The notes below the pieces were generated by a model. That model did not search any database. It was not told the DNA's origin and saw nothing but the letters and a program-made list of their open reading frames with translations. DNA of 64,000 nt from Escherichia coli (GTDB lineage: Bacteria; Pseudomonadota; Gammaproteobacteria; Enterobacterales; Enterobacteriaceae): the NCBI RefSeq assembly GCF_030013595.1, contig NZ_CP122768.1; one strand, written 5' to 3'. This document shows positions 27,462 through 38,195 of the stretch, in pieces (within the stretch, counting starts at the first letter, position 1; the number at the start of each line of letters is the position of its first letter). A program made the translations under genes and the position numbers.

Positions 27462-28280
27462 ATGTCCGCATCAACAATGAGGTTATCTATGTACTCGCTC
27501 AACCAACTAGTTGCCATCAACCACAAACGGCAATGGATTCTGATGGACACGGAAACCTGCTTACCGTTGTTGTACCCACTCAGATATCACATCGATCATT
27601 TGGCTTTTCGTTCATTGTCCACGCAGTCTGCTTCGCTGCAGGCCGTTAAGTTCTTTTACGAATTTTGGTTGCAGAAACACGGCGTCACGTTTTGCTATAG
27701 CTTCTATGCTTCTGGCCACAACCCGTGCATTGCTATTGAGGAAATGTCGGCATTTTCTCACTATCTGGAGAATGGTCGCGTAAGCCAATCAAATTTATTG
27801 GCATTCACTCCAGTCTCCACTTCCCATAGTTTTATCAACGCAGCGCGATTTCGTGCAGTAGCGCAGTTTATTGCTTTTTTGATTAACACGTATGTATCGC
27901 CGGTATATCGGGATGATTCTCCCAAAGCATTATCACTCCAGGCTTCCCGGTTACATACTCGCCTGCGCTTTTGTCGTGACAGTTATCGAGCGTTAACACC
28001 GGGAAAGCATTCTAACCATCGTCATATCCATCAGGGGTTTCAGAGTATGAACCGTGAAATGGTGATCAGTCTGTACACGATTATTGCTCCCTGCTCTAGC
28101 CAAAAATATAACCCATTAAATCCCTTCCCCACCAGAAACACCCAGTTTCGCAACTTTTTGATTATTCGCCTGTTACTGAATTATGGATTGCGAATAGGTG
28201 AATTATTGCTGTTGGAATGCAATTCTATAAAATCAAATATAAAAAAGGATAAGTTTAGTTTGATTGTAACTACAACTTGA
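27462..28280 (+). CDS. Tyrosine recombinase, N-terminal part (Tn554 TnpA-like / GInt integrase 1); probably disrupted
   Basis: 272-aa ORF ending shortly after a box-I-like segment (FLIIRLLLNYGLRIGELLLLECNSI); the catalytic C-terminal motifs are in the next ORF. Confidence 0.55.
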   Translation: MSASTMRLSMYSLNQLVAINHKRQWILMDTETCLPLLYPLRYHIDHLAFRSLSTQSASLQAVKFFYEFWLQKHGVTFCYSFYASGHNPCIAIEEMSAFSHYLENGRVSQSNLLAFTPVSTSHSFINAARFRAVAQFIAFLINTYVSPVYRDDSPKALSLQASRLHTRLRFCRDSYRALTPGKHSNHRHIHQGFQSMNREMVISLYTIIAPCSSQKYNPLNPFPTRNTQFRNFLIIRLLLNYGLRIGELLLLECNSIKSNIKKDKFSLIVTTT

Positions 28281-28305
28281 ATTTAGTCACTCTGCACCGT
28301 TTTAT

Positions 28306-28947
28306 GTGTCCAGGTCGATTAACCAGGTCATCCTTAGTTTCAGTCCGCCAGATTATCAGGCCGCCGTAGCGCGTGGCGAAGCGGCTCTACCAATTATTAC
28401 GCCGACCGACTTGCGCCACAACGTGGGGCACTCACTGGCTATGCAAGGGGTCAGCGCCGAGGAAATCGCGCATATTCTGGGACATACCTCCCTTACTGTT
28501 GCCAAGTATTACATTTTGGCGACACCTGCGCTGGCACTGATTCGAGCCAAAGCGTTGGGTACCAATCCGGTATGGCAAAATATGGTAGCTATGATGTTGA
28601 CTGGTGAACTGACCTCTTCAACGAAATGGCAAGGCCAGCGCGTGGTCGGCATAATCGGTGATCAGTTGCATGATGGGATTGGTGGTTGCTCCAGAGATAA
28701 TGGCGACTGCCCGTTCAGTGAAGTACGCTGCTGCTACGGCTGCCTGTATTATCGCCCCTTTACTGATGGTGACCATCAGGCTGTGCTGGAGAGTGTAGTT
28801 AAAGAAGTCGATGAATTGATCTCCATTTCAGACAGTGTTGGTAACGCCCGCAATCCACTTATTTCCATCCATGAAACCACACAATTTGAAATTCAATCCG
28901 TGATTGCCCGTTGCCGCTTTCGTCAGGAAAAAGGCGGTGTGCGATGA
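28306..28947 (+). CDS. Tyrosine recombinase, C-terminal part (catalytic box II); continuation of the previous ORF
   Basis: Contains DLRHNVGHSLAMQGVSAEEIAHILGHTSLTVAKYY (R-H...H...Y catalytic signature). Separated from the upstream ORF by about 25 nt with a stop; the R-to-HxxR spacing looks shorter than usual. Confidence 0.55.
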   Translation: MSRSINQVILSFSPPDYQAAVARGEAALPIITPTDLRHNVGHSLAMQGVSAEEIAHILGHTSLTVAKYYILATPALALIRAKALGTNPVWQNMVAMMLTGELTSSTKWQGQRVVGIIGDQLHDGIGGCSRDNGDCPFSEVRCCYGCLYYRPFTDGDHQAVLESVVKEVDELISISDSVGNARNPLISIHETTQFEIQSVIARCRFRQEKGGVR

Positions 28948-31310
28948 AAAAATATTTTGCGCAGTTTCACGCCTTTATCACCGAGCAGCAAAGCTGGTTT
29001 GAACAGCATCTGGCGACAGACTTCGAGCAGTCATGGGATGATCCTGTCTGGGTCTGCGGCAGCAATGGTAGTGGCTGGTTACGTGGTAATGGCAAAAATA
29101 AATTACGCTTTGATGAAATCAGCCGTACCAAAGGTATTGAGGGGCGCCATGCAGTGGCAGAAGACTATGCCCGGTTTATGAAAGCCCTGCTGGTACTAGT
29201 GTATCGGAGGCGAAATCGTAGCATATCCCCAGCGGTGGCTGTGGCAACGCTGATGATTTTGAAGCGCTGGTACCACTCGCTATTTGAGATGACCGGGCAA
29301 ACTCACCCAGTGTATCTAACCACCGGGGTAATTCAACGGTCAATGGATAGCCTCAGCGCAGCTTCGTCTCCAGGGGATCCCAATACCGCCAATTACAAAG
29401 GACGCTGTGTCAGTCTGCAAAAAATGGTTAATCACCAGTCATTCACGCTGGTGACACTGCAATATGTGTCTGATGCACAATATACCAATCAAACCAACCT
29501 GACCCGCAAAGCCCGGGAAACCATGGCTCTGAAACAGCAGGACAAGCTGACAGATACCACTACCGATGGTGAAGAGGCGTTGATTACCATTCGCGGTTTT
29601 CTGAACATCGTCGAATTAATCCAGCGGGTGGAAAGTGATGCTGAGAAAATTGCGTTAAATTGCCTGTTGTTATTGGTTATCACCGGCTTTCGCTCCATTG
29701 AAGCGTTTAATCTCAGACAGGATGCGCTGTTTAAACGCCAGATTGATGATCCGGCAATCCGCAAGCGGTTTCAGGACAAGGGATTACCCGATTATTTCCT
29801 TGGTATCCGTTATATTGGTGTCAAAGGTGCTGGGGAGCGAACGCATTGGGTAGAACCGCTGGCTGTACCGCTGGTCGAGAGTATATTCAGTTCCGTTAAA
29901 ATATTGACCGCACCAAAACGCAGTCATCTGACCTATCTACGGGAGAAATCTTTTACTGATTACCTGCCACAGGCCATCAGCGCCCTACCCGGTGAACAAG
30001 TTGAACTGGATGATGTGGTGACGTACATCACACAAACCGCCTCAAGTTTTCGTGGCCGGGCAGGACAACGAGACAAAACATCCAAAGCCCTCAACAAACG
30101 AGGTGTGCTGCCCGTTCTAGAAATGCCAGGGCCGAAAAACAGCAAATCTATCTATTATTCCAAGACTGACCTTAATCATTACATCAAGACCGAATTTGGC
30201 CTGACGGATGCCAACGAACCCTGTACGCACGCCTGGATGGAAAATGGCAAACGTTACGAAGTTAACTACGAAGACCTGTTATTTCTACATGAGAAGGGTT
30301 CGCTGGCATTAAAGCGCACACTGGCTTTGCTGGCTATACCGATACCATTCACTAACACACTTATGAATAAATTTTTAGGCAATGTTGAGCCTGATGGATC
30401 AGTATTCAGCAAATATCAATTACTGGAAGAGAATGGTACCCCCACCCGGATGCGTACCCACATTCCCCGGCACAACATCAATACCTTTCTTGCTATTGCG
30501 GATATCTCTGACCACTTACAGGCAATGTTGATGGGGCGAGTGGACATCACGCAGAATCAGCACTATCAACATCTGGCGCTTGCAGAACGGCGAAAAGCAG
30601 CCTCGTTGGTGCCCTTGCAGCCGATATCGACAGCACTAACTGCCGCGCCCTCTTCGTCCTCCATTGCTACGCCACTGGAAATCGTCAAACGGACCGGCCA
30701 ACTGGCGGTCACGAAACACATGACTTTGGACAATACCATCAAAGCCAACCTGCATACTTTTGACGATCGGGATGATGTAGCCAGGTTTGTCGAGGCGTCA
30801 TTTGCTGACGGCCTCTTTGAAGATGTTGCTGCCGCCTTTGAAGAAATCCGCGACGCAGAAGGACCAGAGCAAGCCTCTGCCATGGTGGCAAGACATGCCG
30901 TGATGTATCCGCTGAAATTTGGCTCCTGTATGCGGGAAGTTAACCTCTGGGGATGTCCTTATCGACTGAAATGCCAGAGTGCTGCCTTTTGTGAACATTT
31001 CACGCTGACAGGCCGGATAGATGAGCTACCCAATCTGATTGCCAAAAAACAGGCGTTACAGCAAGCACATTCGAAGTTGACCCAACTTACACAACATCAG
31101 CCTGACTACCAGACCAGACTGGCCGACATCGAACGACGGTTACAGCAACTCGAGGCAATACAAGCACAATGGCAGCGTCGTGCCAAGACTCAACAACTGG
31201 TTGCTGCGGAGAGTGTGTTGTCTGGTGGAGTAATCACCGAGGGCAAAGTCCGTACACTGGCCCAGCTTTTTGCACTTGAATACCAACAATTGATGCAGGA
31301 GAACGACTGA
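28944..31310 (+). CDS. Large tyrosine recombinase (Tn554 TnpB-like / GInt integrase 2), about 788 aa
   Basis: Box I-like LLLLVITGFRSIEAFNLRQD and box II-like THIPRHNINTFLAIADISDHLQAMLMGRVDITQNQHYQHL; ATG at 28944 overlaps the upstream stop (ATGA), suggesting translational coupling. Confidence 0.65.
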   Translation: MKKYFAQFHAFITEQQSWFEQHLATDFEQSWDDPVWVCGSNGSGWLRGNGKNKLRFDEISRTKGIEGRHAVAEDYARFMKALLVLVYRRRNRSISPAVAVATLMILKRWYHSLFEMTGQTHPVYLTTGVIQRSMDSLSAASSPGDPNTANYKGRCVSLQKMVNHQSFTLVTLQYVSDAQYTNQTNLTRKARETMALKQQDKLTDTTTDGEEALITIRGFLNIVELIQRVESDAEKIALNCLLLLVITGFRSIEAFNLRQDALFKRQIDDPAIRKRFQDKGLPDYFLGIRYIGVKGAGERTHWVEPLAVPLVESIFSSVKILTAPKRSHLTYLREKSFTDYLPQAISALPGEQVELDDVVTYITQTASSFRGRAGQRDKTSKALNKRGVLPVLEMPGPKNSKSIYYSKTDLNHYIKTEFGLTDANEPCTHAWMENGKRYEVNYEDLLFLHEKGSLALKRTLALLAIPIPFTNTLMNKFLGNVEPDGSVFSKYQLLEENGTPTRMRTHIPRHNINTFLAIADISDHLQAMLMGRVDITQNQHYQHLALAERRKAASLVPLQPISTALTAAPSSSSIATPLEIVKRTGQLAVTKHMTLDNTIKANLHTFDDRDDVARFVEASFADGLFEDVAAAFEEIRDAEGPEQASAMVARHAVMYPLKFGSCMREVNLWGCPYRLKCQSAAFCEHFTLTGRIDELPNLIAKKQALQQAHSKLTQLTQHQPDYQTRLADIERRLQQLEAIQAQWQRRAKTQQLVAAESVLSGGVITEGKVRTLAQLFALEYQQLMQEND

Positions 31311-31744
31311 TGCGCGGCAAGGAACTGGACACACTGATCGAGCACGAATTACAACTGATGCTGGTTGAAGGCTTTGACAAGTCCCCTATTTCCGCCAAGG
31401 CCCTGCATATTCGGCTCAAGGCAAAAGGTATCGTTAACGGTGGTTTAAGTACGCTGAGCAGCCTTGAGCGAAAACGCCTAATTGCTGCCTATGTTGATCA
31501 GCAACTTGGCCCATTGAATCTACGCCCAAAAGAAAAACAGCAATACGTCAACCGCAAAACCCGTCAGGCCTTGCTGGCCAGAAACCAGCAGTTGCAGGCG
31601 GAAGTCAGTGAGCTGCGAGACCAACTGGCGCAGAATACCCTGTCGTTGATAGAAATTGTCAAAGCGGTAAAAATCAATACAGTTATTCCGGTGGAAAGTC
31701 TGTTGGCTAAACATGTAATTCGGGAGTTACACAAGTCGTTATAA
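31310..31744 (+). CDS. Small coiled-coil protein (Tn554 TnpC-like / GInt accessory protein)
   Basis: 144-aa ORF whose ATG overlaps the upstream stop (TGATG); predicted coiled-coil (QQLQAEVSELRDQLAQNTLSL). Third gene of a recombinase-recombinase-small protein module. Confidence 0.5.
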   Translation: MRGKELDTLIEHELQLMLVEGFDKSPISAKALHIRLKAKGIVNGGLSTLSSLERKRLIAAYVDQQLGPLNLRPKEKQQYVNRKTRQALLARNQQLQAEVSELRDQLAQNTLSLIEIVKAVKINTVIPVESLLAKHVIRELHKSL

Positions 31745-31908
31745 TGCTGACATAGGAATATTTCGCCGACAGTTTCCCGGTTGTCGGCGAAATGCTGATT
31801 GTAATTTTTCGGCAAAGGGCATGGACGATTTCTTTTCGTTATTCTGCATATTGCTTACCTTCCCAAATTTCTCCAACCGTTAGTTGGAGAAATTAGATGG
31901 GTCGTAAA

Positions 31909-32103
31909 TCATGAATAAACGCCTTGATCTATTCGAAAAATGAGAATTGCAACTTTCAACGCCCCCTCTTCTGAGTCCATTATCTCAGAGGACGCTTTCC
32001 ACTGTAATGCTCTGTTTGGTTCATTGCACCAGTTTAATGCTGCACTTTCGTTACCTTCAAAAAGATCAATAGCCTTTTGTATAACATCATTTTTTGTCAG
32101 CAT
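31909..32103 (-). CDS. DUF2384-like (Xre/MbcA/ParS antitoxin toxin-binding domain) fragment, likely the frameshifted C-terminus of the upstream XRE protein
   Basis: ...AALNWCNEPNRALQWKASSEIMDSEEGALKVAILIFRIDQGVYS resembles the DUF2384 C-terminal signature; overlaps the XRE ORF by 17 nt across an A6 tract (T6 at 32090-32095 on the + strand). Confidence 0.45.
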   Translation of the reverse strand: MLTKNDVIQKAIDLFEGNESAALNWCNEPNRALQWKASSEIMDSEEGALKVAILIFRIDQGVYS

Positions 32104-32419
32104 GTTTTACACCTGAAGACGTTTTGAGTGCTTCGATAAGGCTACTTCGCTCTTCCTCTGTCATCCGAGATATGAGTAATGCAAGTTCTGCTGTTGTCTG
32201 ATCATCACAAAAAAGGTAGTTCAACGGCACGTTTAACTCTGCTGCCATCCGTCGAAGCGTATCAATATCGGGGACATGGCGTCCTTTCTCATAATGATTC
32301 ATACGACTGCTAGCCGATGCAGGATCAAAGCCAACAAGGAGACCCAGAGAGCGCTGTGATAAACCAGCCCTGCATCTCGCTTCCTTAAGTCGTTCTGGTA
32401 TCGGATTTTTTTCAGACAC
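32087..32419 (-). CDS. XRE-family HTH DNA-binding protein (110 aa)
   Basis: HTH signature LKEARCRAGLSQRSLGLLVGFDPASASSRMNHYEKGRHVPDIDTLRRMAAELNV. Confidence 0.7.
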   Translation of the reverse strand: MSEKNPIPERLKEARCRAGLSQRSLGLLVGFDPASASSRMNHYEKGRHVPDIDTLRRMAAELNVPLNYLFCDDQTTAELALLISRMTEEERSSLIEALKTSSGVKHADKK

Positions 32420-32503
32420 TGATTCATCTTCATTGGCCTCGAATGCTTAGATTGTCTAAGTATCTGCCATTGTTGTATACTTAGCAATCCTAAGTTAATA
32501 GCC

Positions 32504-33076
32504 TTGTTTTGTCATATGAATAGCCGAGTAACCAACCCTGAGTCGTACATATTTTCTGCAATCATCTTAATTGGCAAAGATAACTTCACCAGTAACGAAG
32601 TAGCAAAAATTCTTATCGAGCGATTTTCACTTCCGAAAAATTATTTAAAGGCAAAAGCTTTTGCTTATAACCAAATTCAATCCCTGGTTAGAAAAGGATT
32701 ATTAAACAAAGTAAGAAAAACAGGCGTGTATCAATATTTATACTCAGTCACAGCAGAATTCAATGTCGCAATAGAGTGCGTGAAATTAATTGAGGCAACC
32801 CCAAAGTCTTCCTGTCAACTTGTTTCAAGTGCTACCAACCATGAACACAGAAATGTAAATATCCAAATAAAGTCTCTTATTGAAAAATACAGCAGTGAAT
32901 TGGCGAAAGTATCAGGAGCAAAGGAGATTTATGAGGAATTGATAGTTGCTGTGCCGAGCAGGGAAAATGAATTCAGGAAGCTTTCTCTTGAACAAGAGAA
33001 AAAACACATCAAGATAAATGAAAAAATAAATACATTAATTGGAATTATTAATCAATCTCTTGCAGTAAGGCAATGA
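32504..33076 (+). CDS. Hypothetical protein (190 aa), AT-rich, divergent from the XRE gene
   Basis: Open frame only; lysine-rich with a possible N-terminal winged-helix-like segment and C-terminal coiled coil. No family recognised. Confidence 0.5.
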   Translation: MFCHMNSRVTNPESYIFSAIILIGKDNFTSNEVAKILIERFSLPKNYLKAKAFAYNQIQSLVRKGLLNKVRKTGVYQYLYSVTAEFNVAIECVKLIEATPKSSCQLVSSATNHEHRNVNIQIKSLIEKYSSELAKVSGAKEIYEELIVAVPSRENEFRKLSLEQEKKHIKINEKINTLIGIINQSLAVRQ

Positions 33077-33891
33077 ATTTTAGCAAGTATTTGAAGCTAA
33101 ATGGAGTCATGAAAAAGAGAGGGCAAAGCCGAACTCCGCCCTCTCCCGTCAAGCACTGATATATCTCATTAAAATGAGATTAACAGCGCGCACTCCTATA
33201 TGCTAGTCGTATATAAATATAATGTCAGCCAGTCCCGGATGCAACTCTTTAATGAAGTTCAGTACTCTCTTTTTTTAGTTATCGAAATGATAGTTGGTAC
33301 AAGGGAACACACGAAGAGGAAAATTGCGATGACTTTGACGCAGAGCATGTTGAGTCTATTATTGCGACCCTCGAAGCTCTGGATGCGTTAGATTTACGCC
33401 ACGGAAGATGGACTGTAAGTATCCCTCCAATAGTGCGACTCACTTACCCAGATTGTAAGTTCAAACGGTCGAAGGCACTAGATTCTGATAAGAATTTGAG
33501 GCGCATGAGTACAGGCATTCGATTGTCAGCTTCTGGGTAGTTGTGGGAATTCTGCTCAAAGTGCCGCTGGCCAAAACATATTGGGCGCTGGTCTGTGGCG
33601 GCAAAATGGTGTCACGTAAAAGATACAGATGTTCCAGTCTATTTTTGCCCAATAACGTGCCCCGGGTTCAGTTTTTTTGCTCGGGACTAAAACGCTTATC
33701 CAGATCAGCCGCCAGCTGTTCAATACTCTTCGTTGAGCCTTTATAAATATACCAATCAAACTGTTAAAAACTCGTTCAAATTCGACCAAATATTATTACT
33801 GGCTGATATTAGTTCGGTTAGGCAAAGCGCAACAAACAACTAAGAAGTGCGCCTCAAAAAATTAATTGTAAGGCGCCCCCCTAAAACACAT

Positions 33892-36219
33892 TTATTCTGT
33901 TATATTTCTTGGCAACATAGAAAAAGATGCTTGAGACAATCCTGCGCGCTTGAATTTATACCGTATATATGTTGACACTTCCATCTCATGGTTTGACAAC
34001 AAAATCTGACGATCTGAAAGCTCTACCCGTAACAAATCACTCAATGAAGCAATGTTAATCTCATCCATTGACTGTACTGGATCATCAATCAGTATAAATG
34101 GATTAAGCGCATATACCCTATTCAATGTTAGGAAAAATGCCAAACCTAATGATGCGATTTGCCCACTACTCATAGACAGGATTGCATCATGATCAGACTT
34201 CAGCGCAGTATTGAATTTGAGTATATCTCCTTTACCGCTCACTATAAACAAACCTAACCCACGCTGATAATTCTGTATGAGTCTTCCACTATATATATGG
34301 AATAACAGCTCTATATCACCAATAGTCTTTTTCGCATACTGTTTCGCAGTGTCGTCCAATTGCCGCCTAAGATTAACAATTTTTGCTTTTATTTTTTTGC
34401 CAGCTTCAATCCTAGAACTGAGCTTATCAAGCTCCGCTACTTTGGACTTGTACTCTTCGCTTTTGAATTTAGAATGAGCGGCTCTGAGATAGGATTCTTT
34501 ATTTTCAAAATCTGAAACACTAAGTGAGGTTATATCTGATGCGTTCAAGAAAGCCATCTCTAAGCTAGATGACCAGTCTAAAGGGAGCACATCCTTTTCT
34601 GGTTTTTTAGCTGTAGCAATAATCCCTTTTGCTTCATTAAACCGTAACAGCAGAGCTGCATCATCAGCCGTAAAACTAAGATCTTTTGATACGCCATAAT
34701 TTACCAACTGCAAAGCCACTTCACTTATGATTGAGAACTTAGATTCTGCTGCTGTGAGAGCCTTAAAAAGCACACTATCGAAATCTTTTGCAACTAGGTC
34801 ACGCTGCTGTGTGAATGCTGTTATCTGTAAATTTAGTAAGTCCTGTATTGACCTTACTGTCTCCTCCAACTTCTGGGCAGAAGCATCTATTTCAGATCGA
34901 ATTCTTTCCGCATTATTTACAGCGGCTTCCTCTAACGCAGCGTAAGTCGCCCATGATAACCCACAGAATGGACAACCGGAAATTTCCAAATCTTCACATT
35001 CTTGGTGTCGCCGCAGCAACTCTGCATGAGCATTTAGTAAATTTACAAGCTTTGCGTTCTTAGCTGCACTATCAGATTTAATTAGATCCCGTGCCTCAAT
35101 GAGACTATTTACACCAACCAAATCAGCAGCGTTCTTAAGACCGTTTAGGTCTACTTCATTTATCTCTGAAGCTGGCTTTCTGAATATCAAAAGATCATGA
35201 TCCAGCCCAACTAGCGTTGACTCCTTTACTTTCAGACCTTCATATCCAGCTACTTCAGAACCCAACTGAAGAGCCAACTTTATATCGACCTCTCTTTTTA
35301 AAAACGCATCAATATTACTATTAGCCTTTCTCGTCAGAACTTCATCAAAGTTCTGATATATTCTAAATATATTCCGTAATTCACGTATCAGAGTTTCAAT
35401 ATCTGTATCATTTACAGCCGATAGAGGCTGTTCAACATCCCAACCAGGTGACGGCGTCGCGGTACTTAACCGCTTGAAGTCAACGGAATTCTCGGCATCT
35501 TGAAACTGACCACTAAGCTGTTTAATTTTTTCATTCAACTCAGCCTGGAGGTCAGTATGCACTTTCCCCGTATAAGATTCCGTAATAATACTTTCTAACT
35601 CGGAGCAATATGATATCTGTCTCGTCAATTTATCGGTATTAATAAGATGCTCAATGCCTTTTTTTCTTTCAGTGGCATCCGTCGAGTACAGGTATCTATT
35701 CTGCCCTTGCTCAAGATAGTTCAATAAAGAGAAATTTTTTAAGAAGTTCTCTCCTAGAATACTCTCTAGTGCTTTAGAATCAAGACTCTCTCCAAACTTA
35801 TCGGAGTCTATACTGCTTATTTCGTAAAGCTTAAAAATAGAGAAGTTATCAGGTGCATTATTATCCGGGTTCGATAAATCCGCTATGGTAGCAACACGAG
35901 CTAGGAAAATTGACTCTCCTGAATCTTGATTTATGAGCTCAGCTCTAATAGCGATGTCGCCCTCTTTATTTCTATTCCAGTATATGTTTTCTTCAAATTG
36001 TTTTTTGCGCGAACGTTTTGCAACTGTTGCATCATTTGTATTGATAATTCTTTGTATAACGCCAGTAAACAAAAGCTCCAACGCATCAAATATGCTAGTT
36101 TTTCCAAAACCATTGGGGCCATCCAAGGTAATCATGGAGGCAGATCGAAAATCAATAGATGTATTTTCAAATGGCTTGAAATTTTCAATCTTGAGGCTGG
36201 ATATTTTCCATTTCTTCAT
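33892..36219 (-). CDS. Rad50/SbcC/SMC-like ABC ATPase with coiled-coil insert and CxxC zinc-hook-like motif (LmuB-like), 775 aa
   Basis: N-terminal Walker A (IENFKPFENTSIDF...LDGPNGFGKTSIFDALELLF), central CPFCG motif in a predicted coiled coil, C-terminal signature/Walker B/H-loop (SSGQIASLG...FILIDDPVQSMD...LLSNHE). Confidence 0.65.
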   Translation of the reverse strand: MKKWKISSLKIENFKPFENTSIDFRSASMITLDGPNGFGKTSIFDALELLFTGVIQRIINTNDATVAKRSRKKQFEENIYWNRNKEGDIAIRAELINQDSGESIFLARVATIADLSNPDNNAPDNFSIFKLYEISSIDSDKFGESLDSKALESILGENFLKNFSLLNYLEQGQNRYLYSTDATERKKGIEHLINTDKLTRQISYCSELESIITESYTGKVHTDLQAELNEKIKQLSGQFQDAENSVDFKRLSTATPSPGWDVEQPLSAVNDTDIETLIRELRNIFRIYQNFDEVLTRKANSNIDAFLKREVDIKLALQLGSEVAGYEGLKVKESTLVGLDHDLLIFRKPASEINEVDLNGLKNAADLVGVNSLIEARDLIKSDSAAKNAKLVNLLNAHAELLRRHQECEDLEISGCPFCGLSWATYAALEEAAVNNAERIRSEIDASAQKLEETVRSIQDLLNLQITAFTQQRDLVAKDFDSVLFKALTAAESKFSIISEVALQLVNYGVSKDLSFTADDAALLLRFNEAKGIIATAKKPEKDVLPLDWSSSLEMAFLNASDITSLSVSDFENKESYLRAAHSKFKSEEYKSKVAELDKLSSRIEAGKKIKAKIVNLRRQLDDTAKQYAKKTIGDIELLFHIYSGRLIQNYQRGLGLFIVSGKGDILKFNTALKSDHDAILSMSSGQIASLGLAFFLTLNRVYALNPFILIDDPVQSMDEINIASLSDLLRVELSDRQILLSNHEMEVSTYIRYKFKRAGLSQASFSMLPRNITE

Positions 36220-36940
36220 GAATCAGAGTCTCGATTAGTTTGTCTGCTTCAATCCCAGATGCAGAAGCATTAAAGATTTTGAGATGAAGACCGGTCAATT
36301 TTTTCTCGGCGAGTGCTTCCTTTACATAAATATCAAGCGGCTTTAGTGAGCTTTCCTTAACAGGAACCTTTACAAATGGAAGCTTTATAAAAATTCTCGC
36401 CGCGACGCTATATAATGTAGGCGATAGTGGTTGATCTCGATATTCTGCAAACATCCTATCATCGACAACAATCGCTGAAACGCTTTCGAAGTTGTGCCCT
36501 TCTAACAACCTAAGCTCTTCCTCGCTGTAATAAAGAAAATATTTTTTAAAATAATATGGATTCTCTTCAATTCCAAACACCTTACTCTCAATTCCATTAA
36601 AATCAACTCGGTGCCTTAATTTATGCAAAATAATCAGATCGGTATTTTTATCGAAAGCAGGATCAGATTTGAATGTTTCAGGAGCATACAGTAACACTAA
36701 TTTATTCAGCACCTGCGGTGATGGTATATTTTCACACTCAACCACAGCGAGGAATCGCTTCCTATCTCCACTATCCTGACTAAAATAAGTCAAAGACTTA
36801 TAATCAACACCTTCAAGACCAGCTAAAGTTTCTCCTGCCGAATACTCTATGGTGACGTCATCTGCTTTAGAATAGTCGCCTGTATTAAACAAAGTAAACT
36901 CATGTTTCAAGGCAGCCTGTAGAACAATATCTTTAATCAT
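36185..36940 (-). CDS. Middle gene of the three-gene operon (251 aa), unknown function, possibly LmuC-like
   Basis: Start overlaps the upstream stop by 8 nt and its 3' end overlaps the downstream ATPase start, indicating translational coupling. No recognisable motif. Confidence 0.5.
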   Translation of the reverse strand: MIKDIVLQAALKHEFTLFNTGDYSKADDVTIEYSAGETLAGLEGVDYKSLTYFSQDSGDRKRFLAVVECENIPSPQVLNKLVLLYAPETFKSDPAFDKNTDLIILHKLRHRVDFNGIESKVFGIEENPYYFKKYFLYYSEEELRLLEGHNFESVSAIVVDDRMFAEYRDQPLSPTLYSVAARIFIKLPFVKVPVKESSLKPLDIYVKEALAEKKLTGLHLKIFNASASGIEADKLIETLIHEEMENIQPQD

Positions 36941-38195
36941 TCAACTTCACCCTCGCCTCTTCCTTTGAAATTATTTTTGCATCAAAGGCTTTAGTTATTT
37001 TGTTACGATCCTTACCCATCAATGAAAACTCATCTTCTACAGCATCCCGCGAAGCTCCGGTAGCTGCACAAAATCGCTCAGCGGGTGAAAAAATATTTGC
37101 TCTAGCTGCGATTAGCCATTGATATTCAACTAAGATATCTATCAGCTCTGGATCGCTTTTCAGCTGCTCTATTAGATCTTCAGCAAACCTATGCTCCCGT
37201 CGAGCATTGTCTGCCGAAATTGCTGTTGGCAAATAAAAATCTCCGGCAGAGCACCTATAGTAAGGAGGCTTTTGCTCACTCAGTGGCGCTTTATCTATAT
37301 CGTAGATCACATCCACATAATCATAAACACTGTTCTCACTCACGACCATTGTGGAAGATCCAAAACATAACGACTTCCACAACCATATAAATGGAGTATC
37401 ACCCAACTCTTTAATCTGATCGTAAACATTTGCAACTTTTTGAATAACAGTTCTATCTGCTGTTTTTTCCATTGTATTGGTATACCCATACAATGATTTA
37501 CAAACGGCCATCCTGGCTTGGAACATTTTGTATACAATGTCGTCTTCATGGGTAGCGGTGAGGCTTAATAACTCTACAATCTTCTCACTTTTTAAAGTTT
37601 GAGTAAACGCGGCTTGTGCGGCGCTCATTAACCCATCCTGATTGCACGCGTGTATATATATTACTTGAGCGGCAATATGACTCTGCAAAGCCTCGAACTT
37701 CAAATTCACTAAAAAATCACTGCAAGGTAACTCTTCGGAAACCAGGTACTTCTCAATTTTTGATTTCGTTTTTTCTTCAACATCTTGGAGATAGCAGTAA
37801 GGCAGTCCATCGTAAGTATAAAATTTAACGACATTCCCATTGCTGCCAACAAAATCAGAAGCATCATCAAGGCGCGCAGATGTATGAAAATATCTTTTGG
37901 TAGTCTTATCACACAACATATATGTAGATGCAGCTTTTTCGAGAGCCTCCCTATAGGCAGCTCTTTTATCATCTGCTAGCGCTTTTACCTGATGCGTAGA
38001 AACTGCAACTCCATTTTCAATTATCGAAAAATCATCAATGCTGTCGATTTGCAACTCAAACGACATTTTATTGAGCACACATTCTATGGAATGATAAAGC
38101 GCTAAATGCCCTTGATAAATAAACCCACTCCATGTAGGTGCAGCTGTATGAGGATGGGAGGAAGCCGATTTCGACATGCAATATGTCCTAGGCAA
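36933..38195 (-). CDS. Candidate effector of a three-gene defense operon: PD-(D/E)xK nuclease-like protein (possibly Cap4/DUF4297-like, LmuA-like), 420 aa
   Basis: N-terminal region WSGFIYQGHLALYHSIECV...QIDSIDDFSIIENGVAVSTHQVK has the E..D..E/QxK spacing of restriction-endonuclease-fold proteins; first gene of an overlapping operon; AT-rich. Confidence 0.5.
   Translation of the reverse strand: MPRTYCMSKSASSHPHTAAPTWSGFIYQGHLALYHSIECVLNKMSFELQIDSIDDFSIIENGVAVSTHQVKALADDKRAAYREALEKAASTYMLCDKTTKRYFHTSARLDDASDFVGSNGNVVKFYTYDGLPYCYLQDVEEKTKSKIEKYLVSEELPCSDFLVNLKFEALQSHIAAQVIYIHACNQDGLMSAAQAAFTQTLKSEKIVELLSLTATHEDDIVYKMFQARMAVCKSLYGYTNTMEKTADRTVIQKVANVYDQIKELGDTPFIWLWKSLCFGSSTMVVSENSVYDYVDVIYDIDKAPLSEQKPPYYRCSAGDFYLPTAISADNARREHRFAEDLIEQLKSDPELIDILVEYQWLIAARANIFSPAERFCAATGASRDAVEDEFSLMGKDRNKITKAFDAKIISKEEARVKLND

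Follow-up and report, generated by a model that had tools for sequence, protein, structure and literature searches.

Two short open reading frames (ORFs) on the minus strand of the Escherichia coli contig NZ_CP122768.1 (assembly GCF_030013595.1) overlap by 17 nucleotides (nt) at a run of six adenines (A6). The upstream ORF encodes 110 amino acids (aa) with a domain of the helix-turn-helix (HTH) type; the downstream ORF encodes 64 aa that resemble DUF2384, the toxin-binding domain of certain antitoxins. An earlier note on this DNA raised the possibility that a single HTH-DUF2384 antitoxin is divided between them at the homopolymer. Are they one gene or two, and what might a toxin-binding domain do with no toxin beside it? 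We addressed these questions in the stretch of 64,000 nt that holds the locus (here called the window, with position 1 at its first letter) and in related loci, which are referred to by L numbers. We conclude that these are very probably two separate genes and not a split fusion. The features of the two genes are as follows.

32087..32419, minus strand: 110-aa gene predicted to encode a C.Csp231I-class controller (C) protein, with an XRE-type HTH and a C-terminal helix (start codon GTG, 32419; stop codon TGA, 32089-32087)
31909..32103, minus strand: 64-aa gene predicted to encode only the Xre/MbcA/ParS C-terminal toxin-binding domain, DUF2384 (start codon ATG, 32103-32101; stop codon TGA, 31911-31909)
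32087..32103, minus strand: 17-nt stop/start overlap of both genes, containing the A6 run at 32090-32095 (read from the sequence)
32110..32114, minus strand: Shine-Dalgarno-like AGGTG, 6 nt 5′ of the ATG of the 64-aa gene (read from the sequence)

The ORF sizes, their strand and their overlap at the A6 run, as given in the earlier note, could be read directly from the sequence. The run forms part of GAC AAA AAA TGA in the controller frame and of ACA AAA AAT GAT in the frame of the 64-aa ORF. Since the latter frame is +1 relative to the former, deletion of one A would fuse both ORFs. An AGG(T/C)G motif is found at the equivalent position in related loci. Two E. coli chromosomes (strains HCP5S3_I2 and LCP30S3_I5) match the window sequence at 100% identity, and the same 1-kb segment recurs in 12 Klebsiella plasmids at 99.9% identity (13 plasmid records reach 99% or more). 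This identity across independent chromosomes and plasmids excludes a sequencing or assembly error at the homopolymer. The NCBI Prokaryotic Genome Annotation Pipeline annotates the segment as two genes, including in the Klebsiella plasmids. We concluded that both ORFs are genes of one minus-strand operon, most likely an overlapping pair with translational coupling.

The 110-aa protein had been described as an XRE HTH, and the profile search proposed in the earlier note bore this out: it scored 37.1 bits on Pfam HTH_19, which has a cutoff of 30.2, and 36.2 bits on HTH_3, whose cutoff is 23. Among solved structures, PDB 3LFP, the 98-aa C.Csp231I, matched at an E value of 7e-23, with residues 9-93 of the 110-aa protein aligned on residues 4-88 at ~50% identity; the match takes in the extra C-terminal helix of C.Csp231I. 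A match to PDB 4O8B had an E value of 6e-22. For the homology to C.Csp231I, the family profile gave an E value of 2.7e-26, and the PADLOC model Control_protein PDLC03667 matched the 110-aa protein over model positions 2-93 of 101 (E = 3e-25). The controller gene has a ratio of nonsynonymous to synonymous substitution rates (dN/dS) of 0.05-0.25 in deep comparisons. When the hypothetical fusion was used as a query, all 120 of the top matches listed were HTH proteins that stand alone, with lengths of 94-140 aa, and none of them spans both halves; they come from Enterobacterales, Vibrio, Shewanella, Photobacterium and Alteromonas. We conclude that the 110-aa HTH protein is a predicted complete C.Csp231I-class controller, a known class in an unusual setting. 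With a complete solved homolog, and with a place in the conserved cassette described below, the HTH protein is an arm of a regulatory cassette and not the N-terminal half of an antitoxin.

Several observations concern the controller gene itself. Its start codon is uncertain: an A7 run (32406-32412) lies just 3′ of the annotated GTG, a pair of ATGs, both out of frame and served by a better-placed GAGG, lies just 5′ of it (32421-32433), and the database variants P0002 and P0035 begin MNQCLKK..., as expected from an A8 allele. On a Raoultella plasmid (L002, 6510-6720), a 1-nt deletion lies inside the controller gene (NYLFVMIRQ versus NYLFCDDQT) and the 64-aa gene is intact. At L091 (5058-6195), an IS3-family insertion has taken the 5′ part of the controller gene; the 64-aa gene is again intact and is followed by a hok/gef gene. 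E. coli records H59, H60 and H85-H90 have the same "ParS-only" annotation as L091.

The 64-aa ORF had been called DUF2384-like, and it cleared the 24.5-bit cutoff of PF09722 (Xre_MbcA_ParS_C) with 32.0 bits (E = 1.3e-7), aligning over positions 2-51 of 51. Neither this match nor those of the HTH protein to Pfam are due to chance. Against the NCBIfam model NF049845 (RES/Xre antitoxin), the 64-aa ORF scored 47.4 bits, below the cutoff of 90, and aligned with positions 55-112 of 112; this restriction of the alignment identifies it as the C-terminal half of such an antitoxin. PDB 8GUG_B matched at an E value of 3e-9. A word-seeded protein search with the 64-aa ORF returned only 26 short enterobacterial clusters. 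We rejected the idea that the ORF has no full-length relatives, because tblastn against plasmids recovered the antitoxin KnaA, which the word-seeded search had missed. The tblastn search gave 1,375 records, mostly from Klebsiella, in which a 147-aa antitoxin gene is followed by an overlapping gene for a RES NAD+ phosphorylase. The pair knaAT has been shown experimentally to be a RES-Xre addiction module of Klebsiella pneumoniae virulence plasmids (PMC10896132), and the accession MT644086 is common to that study and our list of plasmid matches. KnaA consists of PF20432 (an Xre-like HTH, residues 30-89) and PF09722 (residues 94-144). Over KnaA residues ~88-147, identity with the 64-aa protein is 58% and takes in the terminal ...HGVYS, and homology to full-length antitoxins starts at about residue 6-7 of the ORF, at the stop codon of the HTH gene.

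Two further clusters, each more than 50% diverged from the window type, share the HTH and DUF2384 arrangement. One of them, L099, has a VspR-like gene, the same operators, and a 107-aa HTH gene that overlaps a 69-aa DUF2384 gene by 14 nt at the junction GATGAAAAGAGTTAA; in the other, L100, the HTH gene encodes 110 aa and the DUF2384 gene 63 aa. Thus, three clusters that are mutually more than 50% diverged hold a 63-69-aa ORF with a 14-17-nt overlap and differing junction sequences. The earlier note had proposed comparison with islands that retain a downstream RES or ParT gene; no toxin gene, RES or other, adjoins the mini-gene in any of the seven loci compared (L007, L008, L087, L089, L093, L099 and L100). 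We conclude that the 64-aa ORF is a separate gene, predicted to encode only the toxin-binding domain of a KnaA/ParS/Xre-type antitoxin.

DUF2384 domains also occur outside this arrangement. Short stand-alone DUF2384 proteins were common in an exhaustive profile search. A 65-aa stand-alone DUF2384 gene lies directly 5′ of genes for a SMODS nucleotidyltransferase and an S-4TM effector in L102 and L103 (4001-6362), next to insertion sequence and Tn3 elements. A 2,009-aa protein (P0148) has DUF2384 profile matches in 22 separate stretches.

The single-gene explanation was weighed at the junction. It holds that one HTH-DUF2384 gene has been split by a homopolymer error, or that its halves are joined by phase variation or programmed +1 frameshifting at A6. 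The loss of one A would indeed join the frames, as the earlier note had argued, and an A6 run directly before a stop is a shifty-stop-like context. The product, though, would not be the usual antitoxin of that note: the 110-aa HTH protein has no similarity to the N-terminal part of KnaA (E = 1.6), its HTH being PF12844/PF01381, and the hypothetical fusion has no PF20432 match and hence lacks the canonical PF20432 and PF09722 architecture. A slip at A6 would thus yield a chimera. The +1 frame is retained in L099, L100 and L089 despite differing junctions, and the slippery tract is not conserved wherever both frames are: in L089 it is interrupted (AAGAAA in place of A6) and in L099 no A-tract is present, yet the overlap persists and both ORFs are intact and separate. 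At L004, GGTAACAAC replaces the tract; there the HTH gene keeps its stop, and the ORF that follows has already been disrupted. The tract is exactly six adenines in every locus read that has it and is identical in independent assemblies, with no length variants among the loci read. These observations, together with an HTH family that is complete alone by solved structure and the lack of a fused homolog or product among the 120 matches listed, make a frameshift at A6, programmed or accidental, very unlikely, and we regard the single-gene explanation as a whole as extremely improbable. The reading of the two ORFs as a split antitoxin was therefore abandoned, the ORFs being independently conserved; the related suggestion of an orphan antitoxin-like gene beside an island regulator is reasonable.

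The region upstream of the operon contains three further features.

32446..32460, no strand: promoter-proximal operator-like palindrome, CTTAGACAATCTAAG in the sense of the HTH gene (inverted-repeat search)
32480..32494, no strand: distal operator-like palindrome, CTTAGGATTGCTAAG, 19 bp from the first (inverted-repeat search)
32516..33076, plus strand: divergent VspR-like regulator gene, 186 aa from its ATG (the ORF listing gives a TTG start at 32504)

Both palindromes are 15 bp long and have the form CTTAG-N5-CTAAG, and promoter-like hexamers overlap both. C.Csp231I recognizes CTAAG-N5-CTTAG at two 15-bp sites that are 18 bp apart (PMC4321490). For comparison we used 80 loci, each from a different species, fetched by HTH-family alignment; operators were counted in these and in additional loci, 86 in total. 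The two palindromes are almost invariant in 78 of the 86 loci, though the proteins are only 55-65% identical. Five further loci (L056, L059, L064, L081 and L084) have CTAAG-N5-CTTAG in both sites, which is the half-site order of Csp231I. A coordinated swap of half-sites, with the palindromes kept, looks like a specificity switch.

The 186-aa neighbor is a distant relative within the VspR-like family, its homology being established by tblastn and a purpose-built iterated hidden Markov model (HMM). It is 31-35% identical to Pectobacterium proteins with precomputed Pfam matches to VspR_N and VspR_C, and such matches are found on this divergent gene in both Pectobacterium and Vibrio cholerae. By the iterated HMM, a VspR-like gene of ~175-199 aa is divergent from the HTH gene in 72 of the 80 species loci. 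An AlphaFold model of the 186-aa protein (predicted local distance difference test score [pLDDT], 83) consists of a winged helix and a helical hairpin and is closest to PadR-type regulators. We considered the VspR-like protein as a hidden toxin partner of the 64-aa protein and rejected this, as the modeled fold appears to be a PadR-like winged helix with no ADP-ribosyltransferase (ART) fold.

The cassette of controller and VspR-like gene spans four gammaproteobacterial orders (Enterobacterales, Vibrionales, Alteromonadales and Oceanospirillales). Its place is always between mobility genes, which are either a recombinase trio or Tn7-like genes (TnsA/Mu-type transposase/TniB), and a variable defense cargo; in V. 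cholerae, one flank consists of TnsA, a Mu-type transposase and TniB and the other of type I restriction-modification (R-M) cargo. We conclude that the controller gene, the divergent VspR-like gene and the two putative operator sites form a conserved regulatory cassette, as judged by sequence.

DUF2384 genes are found at other positions in and around this cassette. In the Pectobacterium loci L087 (4581-4904) and L013 (4895-5227), the VspR-like gene is directly followed by a gene for a full-length DUF2384 protein of 107-110 aa, again without a RES toxin; L087 has both this gene and the HTH and 64-aa pair. In Alginatibacterium (L086, 6510-7222), the controller is followed by a 93-aa ORF with a weak, subthreshold TetR_N match and then by a DUF2384 ORF of 68-85 aa; no toxin follows, and the next gene is convergent.

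In the E. coli chromosome, the region is an island inserted beside hipBA. Its order is integrase genes, a 788-aa hypothetical gene, a 144-aa gene, the two ORFs on the opposite strand, the divergent 186-aa gene and an ABC three-component system. This last is the cargo (window positions 33892-38177), and its 775-aa ATPase scored 232 bits on the PADLOC LmuB (Lamassu) model. Sister islands have type I R-M genes, a Gabija-like nuclease with UvrD, NACHT or other cargo at the same position. The first two integrase genes are cut down to a 245-aa ORF and an N-terminally truncated pseudogene (27543-28947, ~1.4 kb); the intact module, on the Raoultella plasmid L002, is ~2.9 kb. The island of the source strain is probably immobile, with its integrase genes being reduced. 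Synonymous divergence rises ~10-fold at the gene boundary (32087-32103): between the window and L008, synonymous divergence (dS) is 0.08 for the HTH gene and 0.82 for the 64-aa gene. This jump suggests that the cassette is a recombination junction for the exchange of mobility modules and cargo.

Two hairpins lie 3′ of the 64-aa gene.

31866..31894, minus strand: hairpin with a perfect 13-bp stem, 15 nt 3′ of the stop codon of the 64-aa gene (free energy, -24.1 kcal/mol; z = -5.7)
31760..31793, no strand: hairpin with a 12-bp stem between the convergent operons, terminator-like on the plus strand

These hairpins and one 45-aa ORF (31742-31876) make up the content of the 164 bp from the 64-aa ORF to where the convergent, plus-strand gene of 144 aa (31310-31744) ends, in keeping with the earlier statement that no toxin gene follows. 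We rejected the 45-aa ORF as a toxin remnant because it has no family match. The hairpin at 31866-31894 is confined to the subtype of the window, L093 and L006 and has no clear T-tract; hence, it was rejected as a conserved operon terminator. A scan of positions 31200-33900 against Rfam gave no match, leaving an RNA explanation unsupported. No RES gene is annotated in the 41-kb region around the locus.

Is the 64-aa gene maintained by selection? In deep pairwise comparisons, the proportion of nonsynonymous differences (pN) was 0.07-0.26 versus 0.41-0.66 for synonymous differences (pS), giving an omega of 0.06-0.28 with synonymous sites near saturation. We conclude that the gene is kept as a separate 63-69-aa ORF, under what its sequences indicate to be long-term purifying selection, in several diverged lineages. 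Within E. coli, all related islands have an intact HTH ORF of 110 aa, but lesions in the downstream ORF are frequent: an 11-nt deletion and stops in L003 and L009, several stops in L004 and L010, a TGG-to-TGA stop in L006, and that same stop with a deletion in L005. From the 274 E. coli records with this DNA, an evenly spaced sample of 60 contained 10 in which a full-length ORF is annotated, 4 with a truncated 57-aa ORF and 46 with none; the L005 class is the commonest. Representatives of the classes with no ORF carry stops or deletions. About three-quarters of the E. coli copies are therefore broken, by at least three different lesions, and this repeated inactivation shows the gene to be accessory and dispensable.

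Each gene was compared with known systems. The 64-aa protein is like the antitoxins of knaAT, ParST, MbcTA and the Pseudomonas putida Xre-RES system in its PF09722 match above the cutoff, its identity to KnaA and its ...HGVYS end, and unlike RES-Xre antitoxins in falling below the NF049845 cutoff. In contrast to knaAT, the PF20432 Xre-like HTH domain is missing, no RES gene overlaps or follows, and the gene is cotranscribed with an unrelated HTH protein; the canonical loci L101 and L104 do carry the RES toxin gene. The controller resembles the C.Csp231I class (PDB 3LFP and 4JCX; the "motif 8" class of Sorokin) over its full length, including the C-terminal helix, and in having two 15-bp palindromes with 5-bp half-sites and a 5-bp center, 19 bp apart here and 18 bp apart there. 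It differs in that its half-sites are swapped (CTTAG...CTAAG), the gene downstream is a mini-antitoxin rather than a restriction endonuclease, its partner is a divergent VspR-like regulator, and it resides in a recombinase island whose cargo is Lamassu-like, not in a type II R-M system; some relatives of the controller locus carry type I R-M cargo. The HTH homolog of the V. cholerae element is likewise divergent to a VspR_N/VspR_C protein, and VC0176 may be the VSP-1 counterpart. Xre regulators of ~100 aa related to C.Csp231I lie between mobility genes and cargo in I-F3b Tn7-CRISPR-Cas transposons (Petassi et al.). These transposons and the V. cholerae elements share that position of the regulator with our locus, and they differ in being Tn7-like instead of having a recombinase trio and in having no DUF2384 gene after the regulator.

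What, then, might the 64-aa protein do? ParS and MbcA block their toxins with their C termini, which plug the active site. We lean slightly toward a combined statement: a two-gene operon with a solitary antitoxin domain under C-protein control, possibly acting in trans. The protein would be translated by coupling to the controller gene and not by frameshifting, and its level would track the autoregulated promoter of the controller. The antitoxin domain may then plug RES-type NADase toxins, e.g., KnaT, supplied in trans by plasmids or other elements, which would give it an anti-addiction or immunity role. Where RES-type toxins are rare, as in E. coli (knaAT-like loci were found in 56-62 of 5,426 genomes), the gene would be useless and decay. 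Taken by itself, this trans-antitoxin mechanism is a tentative proposal, possible although short of even chances. A further step, which we consider unlikely, is that the C-protein switch gives a burst of mobile-element decoy antitoxin on entry of the island; the decoy would plug the RES-type NADase toxins of knaAT-like addiction modules on resident plasmids, or of RES-based defense systems, and island and host would thereby evade addiction or abortive killing. Orphan antitoxins and anti-addiction modules are similar in being toxin-less antitoxin homologs on a replicon or element other than that of the complete system. Saavedra De Bast et al. are said to have reported in 2008 that a chromosomal ccd counteracts the F-plasmid ccd in this way. 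The present case differs from them in that only the toxin-binding domain is found, under a C-protein promoter, and in that neutralization of a toxin by it is putative.

Several findings weigh against a role in trans. At blastn sensitivity, the source genome has no knaAT-like locus, and 58% identity to the KnaA domain leaves cross-neutralization of KnaT uncertain. The search with the 64-aa protein gave no phage homologs. Most of the wider cassette family (in Vibrio, Shewanella and others) lacks any DUF2384 gene, and L086 is one exception. The 64-aa gene of the window differs from that of L087 by 3 synonymous and 18 nonsynonymous changes and from that of L093 by 1 and 6, respectively; the copy in the window may already be under relaxed selection, with neutral-looking substitutions in its subclade.

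Two other explanations compete with the trans-acting antitoxin domain. The gene could be a nonfunctional relic, in which an ancestral knaAT-like pair beside the controller gene lost its toxin and the 5′ half of its antitoxin, so that a fortuitous 64-aa frame is now drifting. Such a history would fit the start of antitoxin homology right at the HTH stop, the breakage of most E. coli copies in at least three ways, an omega of ~1 or higher in shallow comparisons within the subclade of the window, and the lack of a partner toxin in the source genome or any related locus. It is contradicted by the low omega of the deep comparisons, saturated as their synonymous sites nearly are, and by the C-terminal plug motif, which is kept. 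Moreover, the truncated, toxin-less form, with its conserved start, Shine-Dalgarno-like motif and overlap, is found in all three of the diverged clusters, and a neutral remnant would not have survived for so long. We therefore consider a relic rather unlikely, while taking it seriously.

The mini-DUF2384 protein could instead act in cis, binding the controller or the VspR-like regulator and tuning the switch of the island with no toxin bound. These two proteins are the only partners that are constant across contexts, translational coupling implies a fixed stoichiometry with the controller, and DUF2384 genes are found in three configurations (after the HTH gene in the window, after the VspR-like gene in L013 and L087, and as in L086). 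However, known DUF2384 domains bind toxins of the RES/ART fold, the VspR-like protein is modeled as a PadR-like winged helix and not as an ART fold, and a modulator of this kind has no structural rationale. The cassette is present in 72 of the 80 species loci and the DUF2384 gene in only a handful, and E. coli elements drop the 64-aa gene and keep the regulators. We regard a modulator in cis as improbable.

An HTH ORF that overlaps a DUF2384 ORF at a homopolymer mimics a frameshifted antitoxin; here, it is an R-M-type controller followed by an independent gene. We found no description of a toxin-binding domain alone wired to a C-protein operon. The decoy reading, if true, would mean that a toxin-binding domain has been uncoupled from the DNA-binding domain that belonged to it and placed under an R-M-type timing circuit. 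If RES toxins are neutralized in trans, the operon would be an anti-addiction or antidefense device timed by a C-protein circuit, and it would bear on how chromosomal islands compete with the knaAT-stabilized virulence and resistance plasmids of Klebsiella. More striking than the 64-aa gene itself is the conserved cassette of controller and VspR-like regulator. With its near-invariant operators, it marks the boundary between mobility genes and defense cargo in both recombinase-trio and Tn7-like elements, and it could serve to find defense islands and to study how their cargo is regulated.

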